Positions 2,153 to 61,079 of a stretch of 64,000 nucleotides of DNA are shown piece by piece; the first letter of the stretch is position 1, and each line of letters opens with the position of its first letter. The notes below the pieces were generated by a model. It saw only the letters and a program-made list of their open reading frames with translations, made no database searches and was not told the DNA's origin. A program made the translations under genes and the position numbers. Source of the DNA: Patescibacteria group bacterium (GTDB taxonomy: Bacteria > Patescibacteriota > Patescibacteriia > Magasanikbacterales > GWA2-37-8); contig JBAZUP010000001.1 of NCBI GenBank assembly GCA_041661385.1, positions 704,907-768,906 on the forward strand. Reading direction: 5' to 3'.

Positions 2153-2173
2153 ATAAATTACAAATTATATTAA

Positions 2174-2198
2174 GCGCGGCCTCAGCCGCGCTTTTTTT
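2174..2198 (+). terminator. rho-independent terminator after efp
   Basis: gcgcggc-ctca-gccgcgc hairpin followed by a 7-T tract. Confidence 0.7.
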
Positions 2199-2209
2199 AT
2201 TTATTTTTT

Positions 2210-2627
2210 TATCTCGCTATCCCCGCCTGCAACGCTTTGCGTAGCAATGCGGGCAGGGCTCAATCAATTCAATCATTTCTCTATAATACTTATTTCCTTA
2301 GCCCTGCCGGCGGCATCACTTTTCATAACTGAAAAGTAATCAAAAGGTTCTGGGGGCCGGCAGAACTCGTCGCGCGAGCTCCTCAAACAGCTGGCGGCCC
2401 CCAAACCCCCGTTGGGTAATTGGTTGGACAACAACTGGTGACCGAGCCTTTGTGTAACGAGAGCGAAATGGCCGGCGAAATTAGATTTTTTCAATACGAT
2501 TATGCACCTTTGAAAAAATCGTTTTGATTTCGACAAGACATTTGCCGAGCGGAACAACTGCGAGGCAATTTTGGGGACACCCCTTTTGTTGCCAAAAGGG
2601 GTGTGAAAGAGTTTTGAGCGATAGCGA
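2210..2627 (+). ncRNA. candidate structured ncRNA or repeat element, copy A (homologous to 21659-21955)
   Basis: Shares several conserved blocks in the same order with copy B: tatctcgctatc, ctcaatcaatt, ttagccctgc, ttcataactgaaa, aaccaaaggtt, ccccaaacccccgttgggtaattg, gaccgagc, and a distal hairpin gacacc..ttttg.tgccaaaagg..gtgtg. The long stem gggggccggcag/ctggcggccccc (2352-2363 with 2391-2402) covaries with the copy B stem. The 5' end (ctcgctatc) and 3' end (gatagcgag) are complementary, forming a closing helix. The element begins right at the efp terminator T-tract. Confidence 0.45.
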
Positions 2628-2700
2628 AATGTATTAATGAAAAAATATGTTAAATTTGTAATCTAGAAATTTATATTCATCTGTGCTAGTGTAAAATGGT

Positions 2701-3258
2701 ATGAAAGAACTGACCGATAATCAACTAATTACGGCATATCGCGAGGGTGATGGCAGTGCTTTTGAAAATTTGGTAAATAGGCATCTAAAATCTGTCTATT
2801 TTTATTGCGTCCGATTGGTCGGTAAAGACGAGGCGAATGACATGACTCAAGAGGTTTTTATTAAAGTTTGGAAACATCTCAATAAGTATGATGTTGAAAA
2901 AAATTTCAAAGTTTGGCTATTTCGAATTGCCCGCAATACCTGTCTCGATTATCTCCGTAAAAAACAACCGATGGTATTTTCGGATTTAAAAAAAGAAGAT
3001 GAAATGTCGGTTGAAGAAAATATTCCTGATCAGCGAAAAGGCGTAGAGGAAAAATTATTTGCTGCCGATCAAAAATCTGAACTTGATACGGCGCTTGCTA
3101 AATTATCAATACCAACTCAAGAAGTATTTGAGTTGTTTTATCGAGATGAATTAACTTTTAATGAAATAGCGGAAACTCTTAAACTATCCGTAAATACGAT
3201 AAAAAGCCGACACCGTCGGGGTATCGTTGAGCTCCAAAAAATATTAAAAGGTCAGTAA
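2701..3258 (+). CDS. ECF-type RNA polymerase sigma factor (sigma-70 family, regions 2 and 4)
   Basis: 185 aa; region 2 (FENLVNRHLKSVYFYCVRLVG...DMTQEVFIKVW..FKVWLFRIARNTCLDYLRK) and region 4 (LTFNEIAETLKLSVNTIKSRHRRG...L). Confidence 0.85.
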   Translation: MKELTDNQLITAYREGDGSAFENLVNRHLKSVYFYCVRLVGKDEANDMTQEVFIKVWKHLNKYDVEKNFKVWLFRIARNTCLDYLRKKQPMVFSDLKKEDEMSVEENIPDQRKGVEEKLFAADQKSELDTALAKLSIPTQEVFELFYRDELTFNEIAETLKLSVNTIKSRHRRGIVELQKILKGQ

Positions 3259-3302
3259 ATGCACCAAAATTGCCGACTGTTGCGTATTATTAATATATAA
3301 AT

Positions 3303-3737
3303 ATGAACCTCGACGAACATCTAAAAAATAGCTATTCACAGGCCCTTTTGACCGAGGTTGATTTAGAAGCGACTAGATCTAAAATTATGATACAGGTTAG
3401 CCGGCTTAACAAGCGCCGCATACTCATTCGCTCCGGTTTTTGGAGTGTGTTTACCTTTGTTTCTACCCTAGGTCTCGTTACTAGCAGTATTGGGTTTTAT
3501 CAACAGTTTATTGGTTCTGGAGCCCGCGAACTTATCGTAGTTGCTATTACAGACACCAGTGTTATTCTGCAGAACGGCACGGCCTTTTTTTATTCTCTCG
3601 CCGAATCCATGCCGGTCGGAAATATTGCCGGAACGCTTGCCGCGACCGCCGCTTTTTTATATTCTTTACAACATTTATCAGAATTATTAATGAATAATTT
3701 ATCAAAAAAAATATATGGACACAAACCAACAAATTAA
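3303..3737 (+). CDS. membrane protein, possible anti-sigma factor partner of the upstream ECF sigma factor
   Basis: 144 aa with a short charged N-terminus and then hydrophobic segments. Assigned only by position immediately downstream of the ECF sigma factor. Confidence 0.35.
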   Translation: MNLDEHLKNSYSQALLTEVDLEATRSKIMIQVSRLNKRRILIRSGFWSVFTFVSTLGLVTSSIGFYQQFIGSGARELIVVAITDTSVILQNGTAFFYSLAESMPVGNIAGTLAATAAFLYSLQHLSELLMNNLSKKIYGHKPTN

Positions 3738-4185
3738 ATCAAAAATGTTGAAGTGGGTTATTTTCGGTATTGCTGAGCTCGCGCTAGTGGCAATTGTTTT
3801 TCGTACTGGCATGATGGTTGGTTTTGCAAAAGCAAACTTTAATTTTAGCTGGGGAGAACAATATCATAATATGTTCGGCGGTCCGCGCGGAGGTTGGATT
3901 GGCGGTCGTGGTGGCATGATGGGCGGCGCCTTTGATCGGGATGATTTTTCCCCAGGGCACAACGTGGTCGGATCGGTAATAAAAGTTTCTTCTTCAACTA
4001 TAATTGTAAAAGGGGCAGACAACACAGAAAAATTATTATCAATTTCAGAGGGAACAACGATTAGAAAAGGCGGAACGAATATTAAAATTTCTGAATTAAA
4101 AGAAAATGATCGAATAGTTGCAATTGGTTCGCCAAGTACTACCGGTCAGATTGAGGCAAGTTTCATCCGTGTCTTTCAGCCATAA
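3715..4185 (+). CDS. membrane-anchored Gly-rich protein, paralog of the 7882-8316 product
   Basis: N-terminal TM segment, a Gly-rich linker (GGPRGGWIGGRGGMMGG), and a C-terminal beta-rich domain that aligns by eye with the 7882 ORF (GSVIKVSSSTIIVKGADNTEKL..ISEGTTIRKGG vs GEILSKTDNTLTIKLRDGGSKI..FSSSTPVRMF). Confidence 0.5.
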   Translation: MDTNQQIKSKMLKWVIFGIAELALVAIVFRTGMMVGFAKANFNFSWGEQYHNMFGGPRGGWIGGRGGMMGGAFDRDDFSPGHNVVGSVIKVSSSTIIVKGADNTEKLLSISEGTTIRKGGTNIKISELKENDRIVAIGSPSTTGQIEASFIRVFQP

Positions 4186-4188
4186 TTT

Positions 4189-5889
4189 ATGAACATTGTT
4201 CAGAGAGTGAAAAAACATCCATACTATACAGCCGCAATTGCAATTACTTTGGTTGGCGGCGGGTGGTATTGGTATAGCCATCGAACGGTTGCGACTATTA
4301 CGCAATATGTAACAGCGACAGTTGAAAAACAAACCATAATTTCTACTGTTAGCGGCAGTGGCCAGGTCAGCACTCTGAAAAGATTAGATTTAAAACCTCA
4401 AACCAGCGGGACTACGAATCAGGTAACCCTTACTTCGATGAATGTTGTTCCCGGTCAAATTGTAAAAGCCGGCCAAGTTATAGCAGTTATAGATAATACT
4501 AGTGCGATGGTTTCGCTCGAACAAGCGCAAGCATCTCTTATTAGTGCGGAAGCGAATTATAAAAAAATATTAGGCGGGACAACTGAAACAGATTTAAAAA
4601 ATGCCAGGCAAGATGTAATTTCCGCTGAGTCGGCTTTGCAAAATGCTAAAACAAGTTTAGATACAGTAACCCAACAGCAAAATACGGCGGTAGCCAATTC
4701 TTACCGCAGTCTTTTGACAAGCGGAATAGCGGCGACTCAATCGCTATGGTCATATACTTCTACGAATGTAACTGAAAGCGACAAGCCGACCATTACCGGT
4801 TCGTACGCGCTTACCGCGTCCGGTACTTTGCAAATTTTTCAACAGGGTGCTTATTTTTATGCTTCCGGAATAGAAACTATTCCAATGCAAAAAATTGATA
4901 CCCGTATTCCGGTTGCGCTTGGTACAACCGGGCTGTATGTTCAGTTTCCAAATGATGCGATTTCTGCCGAATGGGATATTCAAATTCCCAATCCTCAAGC
5001 TAGTAGCTACGTTTCAAATTTAATTTCTTATCAGTCTGCGCTTCTTTCTCAAAAACAGGCTCTTAGTAATGCGCAAAATGCGATTATCACCGCTCAGACG
5101 AATCTTCAAAAAGCACAAGATAATCTTGCTTTGAAAGAACAGCCGCCGGAAGATAGTAGTGTCGCAACCGCGCGAGCCCAGCTTATTAACGCGCAATCGC
5201 AACTGCGAACCGCGCAAAGTAATTATAGTAATACCAGAATAACCGCACCTTTCGCCGGTCAAATTGCCGCTGTAAATTCCCAGCAAGGTGATCAGGTTTC
5301 TGGCTCTACTGTAATCGCGACCCTTATCACCGAACAAAAAATTGTCACCGTCAGTTTAAATGAAGTCGATGCTGCCAAGGTAAAAGTCGGCAATCCGGTT
5401 ACTCTTACCTTTGATGCAATACCAAGTCTTACTTTGACCGGCAAGGTTTCACAAATTGATCTCCTCGGCACAGTAGCTCAAGGGGTAGTTAATTATTCTG
5501 TTCAAATTTCATTTGATACTCAAGATGATCGAGTTCGGCCCAGTATGAGTGCGGCCGCCGCCATTATTACCGAAACCAAAACCGATGTGCTCGCCGTACC
5601 AATTTCTGCAATCAAATCAAACGGCAGCGGCTCTTATGTCGATGTTATTGAAGATAGTAATATTGCTACTAAAAACGGAACGACTGTAACTTTAAAAACC
5701 AGCCCCAAACAGCAAACCGTTCAAGTCGGAGCTTCTGATAATTCATTCACGGAAATAATCAGCGGTCTTACCGAAGGTGAGACAATTGTCTCAAGAACTA
5801 TCACTCAGGCAGCAGCTGCCTCTTCTGCTTCGTCGCTTAGAATTCCAGGTATAACCGGTGGCGGGGGCGGAAATTTCCGCGGAAATTAA
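4189..5889 (+). CDS. periplasmic adaptor or membrane fusion protein of an efflux system (HlyD/MacA family)
   Basis: 566 aa; N-terminal TM, a long coiled-coil-rich middle, and the MFP barrel-sandwich signature NTRITAPFAGQIAAVN..GD.V; Gly-rich C-terminal tail. Confidence 0.7.
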   Translation: MNIVQRVKKHPYYTAAIAITLVGGGWYWYSHRTVATITQYVTATVEKQTIISTVSGSGQVSTLKRLDLKPQTSGTTNQVTLTSMNVVPGQIVKAGQVIAVIDNTSAMVSLEQAQASLISAEANYKKILGGTTETDLKNARQDVISAESALQNAKTSLDTVTQQQNTAVANSYRSLLTSGIAATQSLWSYTSTNVTESDKPTITGSYALTASGTLQIFQQGAYFYASGIETIPMQKIDTRIPVALGTTGLYVQFPNDAISAEWDIQIPNPQASSYVSNLISYQSALLSQKQALSNAQNAIITAQTNLQKAQDNLALKEQPPEDSSVATARAQLINAQSQLRTAQSNYSNTRITAPFAGQIAAVNSQQGDQVSGSTVIATLITEQKIVTVSLNEVDAAKVKVGNPVTLTFDAIPSLTLTGKVSQIDLLGTVAQGVVNYSVQISFDTQDDRVRPSMSAAAAIITETKTDVLAVPISAIKSNGSGSYVDVIEDSNIATKNGTTVTLKTSPKQQTVQVGASDNSFTEIISGLTEGETIVSRTITQAAAASSASSLRIPGITGGGGGNFRGN

Positions 5890-5912
5890 TATTATAGGGG
5901 TGTCGCTAATGT

Positions 5913-6614
5913 ATGATTGAAGTAAAGAATATTGGAAAAACGTATAAAACTGGTGATATTGAATATCAAGCCTTAAAAGGCATTAGCCTCACTATAAAAG
6001 ATGGCGAGTTTCTCGCAATCATGGGCCCCTCTGGGTCCGGCAAATCAACGCTCATGCATATTCTTGGCGCTCTTGATAAACCATCATCCGGAAATTATAT
6101 TTTGGATGGAAAGGATGTCTCAGAATATAGTGAAGATGAACTTGCAAGAATTAGAAAACAAAAAATAGGTTTTGTTTTTCAATCTTTCAATTTATTACCG
6201 CGAACTACCGTACTTCGAAACGTAATGTTGCCGCTCATTTATGCCGGTGTGCCGAAGGGTGAGCGGGAAGAGCGAGCAAAGATGGCGCTAAAAGCCGCCA
6301 GTTTTGAAGAGTCACATTTTTTAAATTTATCTAATCAGCTTTCAGGCGGACAGATTCAGCGCGTTGCCATTGCTAGAGCGCTAGTAAATAATCCGTCATT
6401 AATTTTAGCGGACGAACCGACCGGCAACCTCGATACCAAAACCGGTGAAATTGTTCTCGGCACTTTTCAAAAATTAAACAGTGAAGGACACACGATTGTT
6501 CTAATTACCCATGAGAGAGATGTGGCAGAGCATGCGAGGCGAATTGTATTTTTGCGCGATGGTGTGGTTTTAAGTGATGAACTGAATAAAAATCAGGTAA
6601 TGGCTAAGACGTAA
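5913..6614 (+). CDS. ABC transporter ATP-binding protein (MacB/LolD-like)
   Basis: Walker A GPSGSGKST, Q-loop, signature LSGGQIQRVAIARAL, and Walker B ILADEPTGNLD. Confidence 0.9.
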   Translation: MIEVKNIGKTYKTGDIEYQALKGISLTIKDGEFLAIMGPSGSGKSTLMHILGALDKPSSGNYILDGKDVSEYSEDELARIRKQKIGFVFQSFNLLPRTTVLRNVMLPLIYAGVPKGEREERAKMALKAASFEESHFLNLSNQLSGGQIQRVAIARALVNNPSLILADEPTGNLDTKTGEIVLGTFQKLNSEGHTIVLITHERDVAEHARRIVFLRDGVVLSDELNKNQVMAKT

Positions 6615-6623
6615 AACTATATT

Positions 6624-7853
6624 ATGATGAAAACCGTTGATTTAATTGAAGAAATTTATTGGGGGCTTTCCGCCAACAAGGTCCGGTCTTTTTTAACTAT
6701 TCTCGGTATTGTTATCGGCATTGCTTCGGTAATTGCCCTGCAGGCGATTGGTGCCGGGGCCAAAGGTACCATTGAAGCTAGTATCCAATCGGTAGGATCA
6801 AATTTATTATTTGTTACACCGGGCGCTCAGCGCGGTGTTGGAGTTTCAATAAACGCCGGCCGAGGTTCGTCACAAACTTTAACGAATGAGGATGCTGCAG
6901 CAATTGCTAGCAGTATAAATGGAGTTAAGGCGGTTGTGTCGGAAAAATCTGCCCGCTATCAAGTCAAAGCGGGTGGCCTGAATACAAATACCTCGATTAT
7001 TGGTACAACTTCCGCCTATCCGGGTGTTCGCAATATTCAAATTGATACGGGAACATTTATCAGCGATCAGCAGCAGCAATCGAGCCAGCGGGTCGCGGTA
7101 CTAGGGCCGACCGCCATGGCCGATTTATTCGGTTCGAGCACCACAAATATTATTGGGAAAACCGTAACAATAAAAAACATGCCGTTTATTGTTATTGGTA
7201 CAACGGTGGCAAAAGGCGGTTCCGGTTTCAGCAATTCTGATGACGCAATATATGTTCCTCTATCTACTGCTCAAAAATTTTTAGCTGGTGACGATTTTCT
7301 GGGTACCATTGATGTTCAGGCGGAAGATGCCTCACAAATGACAAACATTAAAAATGATATTACATCTTTATTGCTCGCTCGCCATAAAATTACCGGCACA
7401 AAAACCGCAGATTTTAGTGTGATGAGTCAAACTGATATTCTTGCTACTGCTTCCAGCATTACCGACACCCTAACTTCACTACTCGCCGCTATCGCTGGCA
7501 TATCGCTTTTGGTTGGGGGTATTGGAATTATGAACATGATGTTAACGACCGTAACCGAACGCACTAAAGAAATTGGTCTTCGGCAGGCAATTGGTGCAGA
7601 AAAAGCTGATATTAGCAGACAGTTTTTATTGGAAGCTGTGACGCTCACATTTATTGGCGGAGCGGTCGGAACATTTATCGGTTATCTCGCTTCACTTATC
7701 ATCAGTAAATTTATAAATGTGGCGGGAACGATTACTTTATCTTCAGTCATGCTCGCAATTGGCGTTTCGGCCGGCATCGGAATTGTGTTCGGTTATTATC
7801 CGGCCCGACGTGCGGCAAAACTCAACCCGATTGAAGCGTTAAGATTTGAATGA
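6624..7853 (+). CDS. ABC transporter permease, FtsX/MacB family
   Basis: 409 aa with an N-terminal TM, a large periplasmic domain, then the C-terminal 3-TM FtsX-like domain (GIGIMNMMLTTVTERTKEIGLRQAIGA). Completes MFP-ATPase-permease synteny. Confidence 0.8.
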   Translation: MMKTVDLIEEIYWGLSANKVRSFLTILGIVIGIASVIALQAIGAGAKGTIEASIQSVGSNLLFVTPGAQRGVGVSINAGRGSSQTLTNEDAAAIASSINGVKAVVSEKSARYQVKAGGLNTNTSIIGTTSAYPGVRNIQIDTGTFISDQQQQSSQRVAVLGPTAMADLFGSSTTNIIGKTVTIKNMPFIVIGTTVAKGGSGFSNSDDAIYVPLSTAQKFLAGDDFLGTIDVQAEDASQMTNIKNDITSLLLARHKITGTKTADFSVMSQTDILATASSITDTLTSLLAAIAGISLLVGGIGIMNMMLTTVTERTKEIGLRQAIGAEKADISRQFLLEAVTLTFIGGAVGTFIGYLASLIISKFINVAGTITLSSVMLAIGVSAGIGIVFGYYPARRAAKLNPIEALRFE

Positions 7854-20315: not shown

Positions 20316-21620
20316 ATGCATCAAGTTGATTTTGATTTAAATACCGGCGAACTGACTAAGGTTGAAGGTGCAGCAGAGCTTAATTTGCGAGTGCGAAATG
20401 GCAAAGTTGAATATGCCCATTTTGGCATTATTGAATATAAACGATTTTTTACTGAAGCGATGAAGGGCAAGCCGGTTGATGCGATTCCTCAGCTGGTCGC
20501 GCGTATTTGCGGCACTTGTTCAAACGCACACCTCCTTTGTTCAATTGAGGCCTGTGAACACGCTCTAGGAATCGTGCCGACCGAACAGACCAAATTTTTA
20601 CGACTACTTACCATGTACGGTCTAAATATCCGTGATCATGCGCTGCACCTGTATTTGTTCTGCATGCCCGATATTTTTGGTAAAGATTCATTCATGGATT
20701 TTGATGAAAATGATTCATTTCAAGATCAAATGCTTCATGATGCTTTTAATATAAAAGCGGTCGGTAATCAGCTAGCGATAATGGTCGCCGGCAGGTCTGT
20801 TCACGCTACTTACCCGGCGGTGGGTGGGTATTTGCATGTACCAACAAATAAAGAAGTTGAAGAAATAATTAAGAAATTGCGTTCGATTCGTCCGGCGGTA
20901 ATTAGGCTTATTAATTTTTTTGCGGAAAAAAATCCGTTTCACTTTGACCGGAAAACCGATTTTCTCGCTATGATTTCCGATCGTTGTGGTTTTATCGACG
21001 GAGTAATTAAATCGAGCACCGGTGAAGTAATTTCGAAAGAAAATTTTTCTAAACATCTCGAGCACACGGTACTTGAATACTCACAGGCTTCGGCTTATAA
21101 ATATAAGGGTCGACCATATATGGTCGGCGCACTTGGGCGCCTTAATATGGCGAGCGACCGATTGCATCCGAATACGAGAAAAGATGCCGGTTCAGCCATC
21201 AAACAATTTCCTTCTACCGACATATTTAAAAATAACCTTGCTCAGGCCATTGAAATTCTTCATGCAATTGATGATTCTATTGAAATTCTTACTAAGCGTG
21301 AGTTCAAGTTAGAACAGATTCCGGAAATTAAATACCGCGATGCGGTCGGAATTGGCGTCATTGAGGCGCCACGCGGACTTTTGTATCACAAAGTAACCGT
21401 TGGGGCAGATGGCCTTATAAAAGAAGGCGAAGTAGTGGTCCCAACTGGTCAGAACCAAACCAATATTGAAGAAGATATTACAACTTTGGTAAATGAAATG
21501 TTGCCCGACCACCCGTCGATGGAAAAAATAACCTTTGAAATTGAAAAACTTATTCGTGCCTATGACCCGTGTATGTCATGCGGCTCGCACTTCCTGAAGG
21601 TGAATGTAGATAAAGAGTAA
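20316..21620 (+). CDS. [NiFe] hydrogenase large (catalytic) subunit, group 3
   Basis: N-terminal L1 motif RICGTCSNAH and C-terminal L2 motif DPCMSCGSHF, the Ni-Fe ligating Cys pairs. 434 aa. Confidence 0.85.
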   Translation: MHQVDFDLNTGELTKVEGAAELNLRVRNGKVEYAHFGIIEYKRFFTEAMKGKPVDAIPQLVARICGTCSNAHLLCSIEACEHALGIVPTEQTKFLRLLTMYGLNIRDHALHLYLFCMPDIFGKDSFMDFDENDSFQDQMLHDAFNIKAVGNQLAIMVAGRSVHATYPAVGGYLHVPTNKEVEEIIKKLRSIRPAVIRLINFFAEKNPFHFDRKTDFLAMISDRCGFIDGVIKSSTGEVISKENFSKHLEHTVLEYSQASAYKYKGRPYMVGALGRLNMASDRLHPNTRKDAGSAIKQFPSTDIFKNNLAQAIEILHAIDDSIEILTKREFKLEQIPEIKYRDAVGIGVIEAPRGLLYHKVTVGADGLIKEGEVVVPTGQNQTNIEEDITTLVNEMLPDHPSMEKITFEIEKLIRAYDPCMSCGSHFLKVNVDKE

Positions 21621-21635
21621 AAATGAATTTAAAAA

Positions 21636-21659
21636 CCGCCTGAGAGGGCGGTTTTTTTA
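21636..21659 (+). terminator. rho-independent terminator after the hydrogenase large subunit
   Basis: aaaccgcc-tgagag-ggcggttttttt. Confidence 0.7.
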
Positions 21660-21955
21660 TCTCGCTATCGCTCAATCAATTAATTCATTTACTATATTTT
21701 CATTTTCTTTAGCCCTGCGCGGGCAGCGGATACTTTCATAACTGAAAGTAACCAAAGGTTTTGGGGAGATCGTCGATATAACCACTCGTTCGCGAGAACT
21801 CGGGATATCGACTTCCCCAAACCCCCGTTGGGGTAATTGTTTGGCCAACAAATCGTAGACCGAGCGCAAGTGAGCCGACAGGGGAGGCGAACTTCTAGCT
21901 CGGCAGTTTTTGACACCTTTTTGCTGCCAAAAAGGTGTGCCAGCCCGGCGAGGGC
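21659..21955 (+). ncRNA. candidate structured ncRNA or repeat element, copy B (homologous to 2210-2627)
   Basis: Same ordered conserved blocks as copy A. Stem ggggag..gtcgatat/atatcgac.ttcccc (21763-21779 with 21802-21817) covaries with copy A, and includes a plus-strand G.U pair. The distal hairpin gacaccttttt-gctgcc-aaaaaggtgtg covaries with copy A's cccc/gggg. Starts exactly at the upstream terminator T-tract. Confidence 0.45.
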
Positions 21956-21961
21956 AAATCT

Positions 21962-23835: not shown

Positions 23836-23907
23836 AGCGGGCGACGGGAGTCGAACCCGTGTCACCAGTTTGGAAAACTGGGATAATAGCCGTTATATGA
23901 CGCCCGC
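23836..23907 (-). tRNA. tRNA-Gly (anticodon TCC)
   Basis: Minus-strand cloverleaf: acceptor GCGGGCG/CGCCCGC, anticodon stem CCAGT/ACTGG with loop TTTCCAA (anticodon UCC), T-arm CGGGT-TCGACTC-CCGTC. CCA is not encoded. Followed on the minus strand by a hairpin plus T-run terminator. Confidence 0.85.
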
Positions 23908-23958
23908 GAGGAGTGTCGCGATGAACAAAATTTATTTTGTTCAGCATGACCGACGAGC

Positions 23959-24067
23959 GGCTTCATATATCTCGCGATATATGATTCCGCGTCTCAATCA
24001 ATTTTTCATCTTTTCATTTCCGACGTAGGGCTTCATATATCTCGCGATATATGATTGCCCGCGTCTC
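23959..24067. repeat. two tandem copies (70-bp period) of a 38-bp repeat with an imperfect palindromic core upstream of tRNA-Gly(TCC)
   Basis: ggcttcatatatctcgcgatatatgatt(c/g)cc(c)gcgtctc at 23959-23997 and 24029-24067; core ATATAT-CTCGCG-ATATAT. Confidence 0.6.
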
Positions 24068-59565: not shown

Positions 59566-59737
59566 GTGTCGTTGTTGAATCGATTGATTTTGAATGAAAA
59601 AGGCTTAAATAAGCGAATTTTATAGTTCATTAAAACTTAATTGTTACCGAAAATGTGAGTGGCAAAAAGTGGCTAATATTGGCTGTTTTTTGCCGCCCAT
59701 AAGGACGGTACAACCAAAAAACAAAGAGGTTCACGAA

Positions 59738-60972
59738 ATGACCACCGGAAACATCGGAACTCCCGCCCTCAAGCTGGTGACCACGTCTTCGGAGGTCAAG
59801 CCCTCCGACGAGCAGCTCTTCGCAATCGCCGAGGAAGAGCTGGGAAGCAAGCCCGACCCCGAGATTCTCGCTCAGCCTGGCGTCCGCGTCATGATGATCG
59901 AGATCTGGATGGAGCGGCAGGCCGAGCTCGAGGAGCAGAAGCGCGCCGCCGACAAGCTCGAGGCCGACCAGAAGGAGAAGGAGCGTCAGCGCGTGCTCTC
60001 CGAGCAGGCGAACAAGCTCCGCGAGCGCTCGAACAAGCGCTTCAAGCCCGGCGCCCCCAAGGGCCCGGTCGTCTTCCTCTCGAATGAGGACATCCAGAAG
60101 GCCGTGCAGAACACGGTTCTCGAGGAGGCGAAGAAGTCGCGTCCGGACCTCCTGCCCGACTGGGTCAGGGAGAAGGATGATGTGGCCGCCATCCGCGGCT
60201 ACCTCTGCGGTGAGCGGCGCAACATCATGGAGTACATGCAGGCAAACCCCGCCGAGATGAAGTTCGTCACCTGGGCCACCAAGGCCATCGCCGACATCCA
60301 GGCCGAAATCGTCTTCGTGACGAAGCTCGGCTTCCGTGCCTTCAACAAGGCCGACCTCACCAAGGAGGGGCATTACTGCCCGACGCCGAAGTACCAGCAG
60401 TATATCCTGCCGAGGCTGAAGGCGAGCAGCTTCTATCAGAAGCTGACGAGCCAGGTCGGCGGCACCAACACCGACTCCGCCAAGTCGGTGGAGAAGGAGG
60501 TGCCGGTCGACCACATCGCCGCTGCGAGGAAGCGGACCGAACAGCTCCTCGCGGAGGAGAAGATCCGCCTGGACATCGGAGGTCGTCTGGTCAAAGCCGA
60601 CTGCGACGAGCAGTCGGTGGTGAGCCGGGCCGACCGGATCATGAAGAAGTTCCAGGGCACCGCCGTGGAGCGTCTCACCCAGGCCGCGGTTGGTCAGGGT
60701 GTGCTCGCGAAGACGAGCTCGGATCCGCAGCTGTGCGAGCAGGCGATGCAGAGCGCGGCTCTGTACTCGAAGGCGGCCGATATCGGCACCGACGAGTTCG
60801 CGGCGCTCATCGACGAGCGCATCGCGAACGCCCACTCCGCGGCGGACAAGCCGTACGCCGTGGTGGAGCGGCCCCTCTCTCCACCAACCAGCAGAAGAAG
60901 CAGTCCGAGGCTGCGCGCAGGGCTCGGAACGCGAAGAAGAGCGGTGAGAAGAAGAACAAGAAGAAGCAGTAG
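59738..60972 (+). CDS. high-GC horizontally acquired gene, hypothetical protein with a coiled-coil and charged N-terminus and a Lys-rich C-terminus; apparent -1 frameshift near 60868-60880
   Basis: About 62% GC with GC3 near 90%, against a roughly 38% GC host. SD AAGAGG sits 7 nt before the ATG. Frame 2 (59738 onward) holds the G/C-ending codon bias until the C-run at 60872-60875. From there the bias continues in the neighbouring frame, which ends NQQKKQSEAARRARNAKKSGEKKNKKKQ* at 60972. The in-frame read-through to 61054 uses atypical AGA/AGT codons. The 475-aa antisense ORF (59630-61057) is a GC-composition artefact. Confidence 0.55.
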
Positions 60973-61012
60973 AGTTAGCGACCAACAGGTCGCAAAACTC
61001 TCGCAACAACCA

Positions 61013-61049
61013 GACAGCCAAGGCAATCCCTTGGCTGTCTTTCGTTTTT
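61013..61049 (+). terminator. rho-independent terminator after the GC-rich gene
   Basis: gacagccaagg-caatc-ccttggctgtc followed by tttcgttttt. Confidence 0.7.
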
Positions 61050-61050
61050 G

Positions 61051-61079
61051 TTGACAAATAAAAGATAATCTCATAAAAT
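61051..61079 (+). promoter_or_regulatory. sigma70-like promoter for the ileS leader
   Basis: TTGACA-17 nt-TAAAAT; about 205-nt leader before the ileS ATG. Confidence 0.55.

Follow-up and report, generated by a model that had tools for sequence, protein, structure and literature searches.

A candidate terminator-associated, modular and hairpin-rich repeat family in a Magasanikbacteria genome

Introduction

Class C group II introns are retroelements that seek out intrinsic terminators and enter the DNA immediately behind their stems, in a fixed orientation, and elements of the IS110/IS1111-like and IS200/IS605-like families choose specific sites, leave no duplications and carry structured RNAs. 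Bacterial MITEs (miniature transposable elements with inverted repeats), such as Correia/NEMIS, QMITE and the 439-bp NFM2, are small, non-coding, intergenic and multi-copy, with inverted ends, stable predicted stem-loops and an empty site in a relative, and target-site duplications are known to fade with age (PMC10969869). Compensatory changes have been documented in mobile repeats, for example in bcr1 of the Bacillus cereus group (PMC3184786), and template switching can give rise to hairpins and preserve them with no selection acting on RNA (PMC8794818). Mobile repeats have seldom been described in the very small genomes of the candidate phyla radiation (CPR). Here we describe a structured, dispersed element of about 300-530 nt, depending on the copy, found in a 64,000-nt stretch of DNA (the window; contig JBAZUP010000001.1, positions 704,907 to 768,906) from a Patescibacteria group bacterium of the Magasanikbacterales. 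A preliminary description, made from the letters of the window, had presented two related parts of it as copies of a candidate novel structured RNA family.

Results

Copies A, B and C belong to one family of non-coding repeats

The element is a real, formerly uncatalogued non-coding family, and its hairpins are kept by co-ordinated changes. We favour, with moderate confidence, the idea that it is a MITE-like, structured and modular dispersed repeat which lands at terminator junctions, is lineage-restricted and non-coding, and has inverted ends. It is indeed small and non-coding, terminal inverted repeats are present in copies A and C, and the dispersed copies show presence and absence, the orthologous site being empty in a close relative (locus L035). 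On the other hand, the same copies might be read as a multi-copy family of structured non-coding RNAs, that is, paralogous RNA genes or RNAs derived from 3' untranslated regions, whose inverted ends would form a closing helix. We consider this unlikely, and the evidence on both of its sides is given below as it arises.

By the relatives of its EF-P, the organism is a Candidatus Magasanikbacteria. Copy A (2204-2630) lies between efp (1592-2152) and an ECF sigma factor gene (2701-3258). Copy B (21652-21958) is flanked by the NiFe hydrogenase large-subunit gene (20316-21620) on its left and by a convergent gene for a 121-aa product on its right, and it ends 3 nt short of the stop codon of the latter (21962). 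That these two places hold related sequences, as the preliminary description claimed, was borne out when A was compared with the whole window by blastn (71.7% identity over 205 nt, E 1.9e-16). The 5' ends of A and B share an exact 18-nt match (TTTTTTTATCTCGCTATC) and their distal hairpins a 42-nt match, and a central 18-mer, CCCCAAACCCCCGTTGGG, occurs in the window only in these two copies (0.07 chance matches expected).

Translations of spurious minus-strand open reading frames (ORFs), used as bait in protein collections, gave two further members. Copy C (L039 5556-5030, minus strand) was reached through the spurious ORF P0121 (E 3.5e-18), which is situated about 10 kb past the end of the window on the same ENA contig and also on a JGI contig. 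Copy D is known only as an ORF trace, P0123 (75 aa), on a JGI contig of 778,751 nt that probably belongs to the same organism. The sample comprises three DNA copies in about 95 kb from one genome, and one ORF trace.

A covariance-model search, which the preliminary description had proposed, recovered A, B and C, and neither it nor a profile hidden Markov model yielded any other copy; the DNA covered was the window, a further stretch of about 30 kb from this genome and the loci of the relatives. A 20-nt seed gave one chance match in the GTDB species genomes (in a metagenome-assembled genome of Maribacter), an 18-nt seed gave 22 chance matches and nothing related in the JGI metagenomes, and two seeds gave chance matches or none in IMG/VR. 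Exact-seed scans are blind to diverged homologues, and copy C itself, which does not contain the seed, would be missed by them. The family is new to all collections searched, by exact seeds and in a small sample of related genomes; that these seed scans found nothing related also speaks against a family of RNA genes.

Two other origins were rejected. A phage or plasmid source received no match from blastn in its distant mode. The possibility that A and B are att-like direct repeats around a 19-kb island is contradicted by the content between them, much of which (znuABC-fur, mntP, shikimate dehydrogenase, SIS) is native in relatives, and also by copy C, which lies outside the interval.

The element has inverted ends and an empty orthologous site

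The sequence ATCTCGCTATCGCTCAA, at 21659-21675 on the plus strand of B, matches the minus strand of A at 2614-2630 in 16 of 17 positions (0.15 chance matches expected). With an optional hairpin removed, the two arms of C align over 50 columns and none of 500 shuffles scores as well; for A, 4 of 500 do. The 3' repeat of B is not significant (145 of 500 shuffles were as good) and is either missing or decayed, which leaves B without the closing helix that a family of RNAs would be expected to share. The preliminary description had the ends of A, ctcgctatc and gatagcgag, closing the whole element. This closure does exist, as TCGCTATC/GATAGCGA plus GCTCAA/TTGAGC, but the 3' end was misread and is GATAGCGAaa.

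In L035, whose EF-P is 87% identical, efp and its terminator are followed by 78 nt and then by the orthologous ECF sigma gene, with no element between them. The sigma ortholog has 59% identity over the 34 residues present on the contig, and the sequence just 5' of its start codon aligns with the window sequence right of A. Relatives at 82-94% EF-P identity likewise have no element after efp. An empty orthologous site in so close a relative argues for a mobile unit and against an RNA gene.

The surroundings of A vary as well. The sigma factor gene, two unknown genes, an HlyD-like gene, an ABC ATPase and a MacB/FtsX permease (2701-7853) stand between efp and znuA in the window. This block is absent from a relative with 82% EF-P identity (L030 10562-10700), where znuA directly follows efp, so that copy A borders on a variable gene block.

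Anatomy of the element

Read from 5' to 3', the element begins with a T-run plus A, followed by ATCTCGCTATC, an optional 36-nt hairpin (A and C only), GCTCAATCAATT with an AT-rich stretch, TTAGCCCTG and hairpin H2. It continues with the long stem H3, the block AAACCCCCGTTGGG(G)TAATTG...GACCGAGC, an optional 93-nt hairpin module (A, C and D), the small hairpin P6, the distal hairpin H5 and the 3' arm. The features of both window copies, with the host terminators that they adjoin, are as follows.

2172..2203, plus strand: intrinsic terminator of efp (terminator scan), stem 2172-2193 and then the T-tract TTTTTTTATTTA; host sequence abutted by A
2204..2211, plus strand: T-run plus A, TTTTTTTA, the same in A and B, joined to the element end and lying within the exact 18-nt match
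2211..2221, plus strand: outer 5' terminal inverted repeat of A, ATCTCGCTATC, pairing with 2620-2630
2222..2257, plus strand: optional 36-nt hairpin module, splitting the 5' inverted repeat; in A and C (94% identical), not in B
2258..2317, plus strand: inner 5' arm, in which GCTCAA pairs with 2614-2619 and the conserved blocks GCTCAATCAATT and TTAGCCCTG come next
2318..2337, plus strand: hairpin H2, ACTTTTCA-TAAC-TGAAAAGT, 8 bp in A and one pair shorter in B and C (a paired T/A indel)
2351..2402, plus strand: long stem H3, with outer TGGGG/CCCCA common to the copies
2403..2447, plus strand: best-conserved block between A and B, AAACCCCCGTTGGGTAATTGGTTGG...GACCGAGC
2448..2540, plus strand: optional 93-nt module with an 11-bp hairpin, GATTTTTTCAA/TTGAAAAAATC, and CCGAGC repeats on both sides
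2541..2568, plus strand: small hairpin P6, TTGCC-GA-GCGG / CTGC-GA-GGCAA, whose arms show no clean co-variation between copies
2577..2604, plus strand: distal hairpin H5 of A, 12 bp
2614..2630, plus strand: 3' terminal inverted repeat of A, TTGAGCGATAGCGAAAT, the reverse complement of the B 5' end in 16 of 17 positions
21631..21651, plus strand: stem of a bidirectional intrinsic terminator, behind the NiFe hydrogenase large-subunit gene and with the element T-run directly 3' of it
21652..21958, plus strand: copy B, with the block order of A, neither optional module and no recognisable 3' inverted repeat
21659..21675, plus strand: uninterrupted 5' inverted repeat of B, ATCTCGCTATCGCTCAA
21762..21818, plus strand: H3 of B, 57 nt, 100% identical to C and 56% to A
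21913..21938, plus strand: H5 of B, 11 bp

The inner arms of H3 are wholly different between copies (CCGGCAG/CTGGCGG in A, GTCGATAT/ATATCGAC in B and C), and they are paired in each copy. Copy C is without 8-9 nt of the best-conserved block (GGGTAATTG), a loss not readily expected of a selected RNA.

The 3' tail of B (21940-21958, AGCCCGGCGAGGGCAA) resembles, in direct and inverted orientation, a near-palindromic block of the same copy (AGCCCTGCGCGGGCAG, 21711-21726). In the predicted fold of B this tail replaces the missing terminal helix.

Copies are mosaics, and assemblies break within them

The copies do not diverge evenly along their length. In H3, the 57 nt of B and C are 100% identical, and both are only 56% identical to A. 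In contrast, the two optional modules are 89% and 84% identical between A and C, and both are absent from B, whereas copy D, as judged from its ORF translation, has a distal part like that of B together with the A/C module (93 nt). This mosaic of H3 and optional modules implies that copies have exchanged parts, or have gained and lost them. Exchange between copies is not what a set of RNA genes would lead one to expect, although optional hairpin modules placed at loops and junctions are also seen in variable-stem RNAs. Copy C has, in addition, a 65-nt hairpin-forming insert in the loop of H2 (L039 5366-5430) with ATAA on both sides, which, from its letters, resembles a small nested insertion that duplicated 4 bp. 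Neither the optional modules nor this insert were found as stand-alone repeats elsewhere in the DNA read.

In the ENA assembly ERZ27249449 (MEGAHIT), one contig ends at 2397 and the next starts at 2270, so that both ends fall inside A, with a 128-nt overlap. Contig breaks of this kind are the signature of a repeat or of a strain-variable node. The contigs of Logan break off at the distal hairpins of A (2581) and B (21914), which may merely reflect palindromes in short-k assembly.

The preliminary description had taken covariation in the helices as the mark of selection on RNA structure rather than of repeat spread. We cannot uphold this distinction here, given the inverted ends, the empty site, the mosaic modules, the further copy and the assembly breaks.

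All sequenced copies abut intrinsic terminators

Both the terminator scan and the sequence agree with the earlier claim that A and B begin at the T-tract of the upstream intrinsic terminator, and the rule extends to all three sequenced copies (after efp, the hydrogenase large-subunit gene and rplA). Each of them exactly adjoins the stem or T-tract of an intrinsic terminator and points the same way as the upstream gene. Copy C starts with GGCGG-TTTTTTAT-TTCTCGCTATC directly after the rplA terminator, in the orientation of rplA. Copy A has two T-runs in succession, the host T-tract TTTTTTTATTTA and then TTTTTTTA, which is joined to the element, whereas in B and C the T-run of the element comes straight after the terminator stem. 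This arrangement suggests that the T-run is part of the element: TTTTTTTA probably travels with it, and insertion would leave a working terminator upstream.

The junctions bear on two other readings. The common orientation of the three copies and their upstream genes is what one would expect of a family of structured RNAs. It also brings to mind a non-autonomous derivative of a site-specific, duplication-free element of the IS110/IS1111-like or IS200/IS605-like type, whose structured part would be a guide or recognition RNA or DNA. Such an element would explain a precise, orientation-specific insertion next to a hairpin target. In its favour, junction and orientation at the terminator stem or T-tract are shared by all three copies; a conserved multi-hairpin core and the lack of a target-site duplication fit it, too. 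Nevertheless, no DEDD, TnpA, TnpB or IscB-type gene was detected in the Pfam-scanned ORFs of the window or among the called genes of the overlapping loci, and Rfam gave no match, with HEARO and the IS605-orfB type families included and E up to 10. The long terminal inverted repeats are absent from IS200/IS605, and no complementarity between conserved loops and terminators was obvious by eye in an inspection that was not systematic. We therefore regard this derivation as quite unlikely. An IS200/IS605-type element proper was rejected on the same grounds, namely the long inverted repeats, no match to a TnpB- or IscB-associated RNA family and no such genes in the window. A class C group II intron was rejected as well: such introns have a 5' GUGYG, a domain V and usually an ORF for a reverse transcriptase, whereas here there is no Rfam intron match, the 5' end reads ATCTCGC, and a reverse transcriptase was not found nearby. 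A retron or a diversity-generating retroelement was likewise set aside, as the window has no reverse transcriptase.

Just 3' of copy C (L039 4790-4990, minus strand) there is a strong promoter-like site (TTGACA, 17 nt, TAATAT), followed by about 170 nt and then by a clear intrinsic terminator, CCCGCCATTGGCGGGTTTTTTG. This is a candidate small RNA or 29-aa ORF, for which Rfam gave no match at E up to 1.

Three hairpins are kept by co-ordinated changes

We combined the 5' arm of one copy with the 3' arm of another and compared the folding energy of such chimeras with that of the native arm pairs. Native pairs were better by 4-15 kcal/mol overall: -32.8 and -28.1 against -17.4 and -21.6 kcal/mol for H3, -19.4, -13.4 and -21.6 against -7.8 to -15.2 kcal/mol for H5, and -6.5 and -6.1 against -1.9 and -2.3 kcal/mol for H2. 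One position of H5 carries a different pair in each copy (C-G in A, U-A in B, G-U in C), at a second an A-U pair is exchanged for C-G, and one paired C-G is missing from B. Both helices for which compensatory changes had been claimed, the long stem and the distal hairpin, are thus real in each copy, and the arm-swap favours their native pairs. The same test gave no co-variation for P6 or for a small core hairpin.

A covariation-aware fold had also been proposed earlier. With RNAalifold on sequence-based alignments of only three sequences, the covariation terms were +1.9 and +0.67 (positive values penalise), with 3 double-sided changes each, so the better energies of the native pairs in H2, H3 and H5 go without formal statistical support for covariation. 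The positive terms count against a family of structured RNAs, and the pairing that three hairpins (H2, H3 and H5) keep by co-ordinated changes counts for it.

Folding as such is also two-sided. On one hand, the z-scores (-6.1 for A, -4.75 for B) and the summed hairpin energies, which slightly favour the plus strand (-300 versus -284 kcal/mol), are consistent with an RNA. On the other hand, the minus strand folds almost equally well, the two strands giving -159.3 and -156.5 kcal/mol for A and -107.6 and -110.0 kcal/mol for B, with 15 G-U pairs on one strand and 16 on the other. The single G-U pair of B, from which plus-strand transcription had been suggested, is present, but with no strand bias around it, it says little about the strand.

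The element resembles neither an RNA gene with its own promoter nor a protein gene

Rfam at gathering score found only three tRNAs in the window, and nothing relevant appeared for A at E up to 10 or for C at E up to 1; that A, B and C match no known RNA family, at gathering thresholds or at permissive E, accords with the preliminary description. No promoter was called on the plus strand within A or B. The internal TATAAT/TATATT box noted earlier is indeed present in the two copies (in A, a TATAAT-like box in the inner 5' arm, 2258..2317), but it was not called by the promoter scan, is not accompanied by a -35 partner and is CCTTAAT in C. No 3' terminator closes the element in A or B, the one weak terminator-like pattern being in the core of B. 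With neither a promoter-like site nor a 3' terminator, the case for a family of RNA genes is weakened, and the element is probably not an RNA gene with a promoter of its own.

On the minus strand, A, B and C are overlapped by ORFs of 94, 74 and 125 aa, and the annotation lists P0121 and P0123 as hypothetical proteins, so the open minus-strand frames might be thought to represent a small protein gene. This is extremely improbable. Substitutions are spread evenly over the codon phases (18/17/22 and 14/17/18), and indels break the frame: none of the 14 in the A-B and A-C comparisons is a multiple of three, nor are 2 of the 3 between B and C. The start, end and frame of the ORF differ between copies, the DNA blocks are conserved at all three codon positions, and the products have no Pfam domains. 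The protein-like, 3-nt periodic conservation that the preliminary description named as telling against its RNA family is therefore not seen.

How the MITE-like reading stands, and what it would imply

Several observations weigh against a MITE-like repeat. The copies are few and rather diverged, unlike those of a recent MITE burst. No transposase, recombinase or reverse transcriptase was detected in 42 window ORFs searched with Pfam or in the called genes of the overlapping loci, and the DNA read contains no longer element with the same ends. No identical direct repeat that could be a target-site duplication adjoins the inverted repeats of A or C; the flanks of C show only a loose T-rich similarity (T-runs TTTTTTAT and ATTTTTTGT, offset by 4 nt), and left of A there is a doubled T-run. 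The co-orientation of all three copies with their upstream genes, which has a chance probability of 0.125, fits expression as read-through RNA. Finally, the best-conserved blocks are largely unpaired and the stems variable, and the element has a G+C content of 0.44-0.49, compared with 0.32-0.38 in RNA-free intergenic sequence (window 0.416). Unpaired conserved blocks and a raised G+C are typical of selected RNAs, and the latter is less typical of MITEs, so these two features favour the family of structured RNAs.

A parent or helper insertion sequence with matching ends was likewise not found among the scanned ORFs of the window or in the other loci read. Since duplications fade with age (PMC10969869), the missing one is not decisive for membership among MITEs. 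Still, because of the failed duplication test and the missing helper element, we do not present the element as a proven MITE.

If the element is a MITE-like repeat, as we favour, it would be inserted at its sites by a transposase or recombinase acting in trans, a partner not found in the DNA read. It would prefer the terminator/T-tract junction, or be tolerated only there, and its own T-run would keep the upstream terminator intact. The hairpins might be kept since folding matters to the element, be it as DNA (single-stranded or cruciform) while it is mobilised or as a stable read-through RNA, and template switching in replication may help to keep them. Copy B would be an old copy truncated at its 3' end. 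A bolder variant pictures a terminator-seeking mobile unit whose conserved multi-hairpin core serves, like a bridge or guide RNA, as an RNA or single-stranded DNA guide for orientation-specific, duplication-free insertion where a terminator stem meets its T-tract, by a recombinase supplied in trans from elsewhere in the genome; we give this only a slim chance.

Other features of the window

An island of 1.4 kb (59650-61060) has 63-68% G+C in a window of 41.6% and may be foreign DNA. A long ORF is open on each strand, of 461 aa (plus) and 475 aa (minus), neither with a Pfam match; the plus-strand product, rich in K and E, has the look of a real protein, and the minus-strand one that of an out-of-frame artefact.

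Two 47-nt repeats (23945-23991 and 24015-24061), 85% identical, 70 nt apart and each with the palindrome TTCATATATCTCGCGATATATGA, resemble a pair of operator sites. On one side of them is a tRNA gene (23836-23907, minus strand) and on the other a metallo-beta-lactamase-fold gene (24163).

Discussion

If the MITE-like reading is true, an element that always lodges where a terminator stem meets its T-tract, co-directionally and with its own T-run, would amount to a "safe-harbour" insertion strategy in a gene-dense genome, and it would provide a ready strain-typing marker for Magasanikbacteria. If its core is instead a functional RNA, this would be a new RNA class tied to mobility. For genome scans in general, compensated hairpins in two repeat copies are by themselves no proof of an RNA gene, as this pattern is found in mobile repeats too.

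Among known systems, class C group II introns are similar in their fixed-orientation insertion after terminator stems; the element differs from them in its inverted ends, in matching no Rfam intron and in that no reverse transcriptase was found nearby. Pneumococcal BOX elements consist of modules that vary in number, and SPRITE elements are biased to gene 3' ends and are linked to terminator-like structure (PMC3184786, PMC10969869). Our element likewise has optional hairpin modules and lies at gene 3' ends. It is nonetheless unrelated to both in sequence, and it abuts a host terminator rather than mimicking one, having no conserved internal terminator.

Bacterial MITEs share with the element all the features listed in the Introduction, from small size, inverted ends, multiple intergenic copies and stable predicted stem-loops to the empty site in a relative (PMC10969869). 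They differ in that the element has neither a target-site duplication nor a cognate insertion sequence and is G+C-rich, whereas MITEs are usually AT-rich; its copies are also strongly diverged, modular, strictly placed at terminator junctions and in one orientation.

The bcr1 repeat is shorter (about 155 bp against 300-530 nt), has 5-bp direct repeats, which the element does not, and is transcribed, whereas the element is known from sequence alone. Nevertheless, bcr1 is a mobile repeat in which a predicted RNA structure is kept by compensatory changes and its stability varies from copy to copy (PMC3184786), and in the element three hairpins co-vary and others decay.

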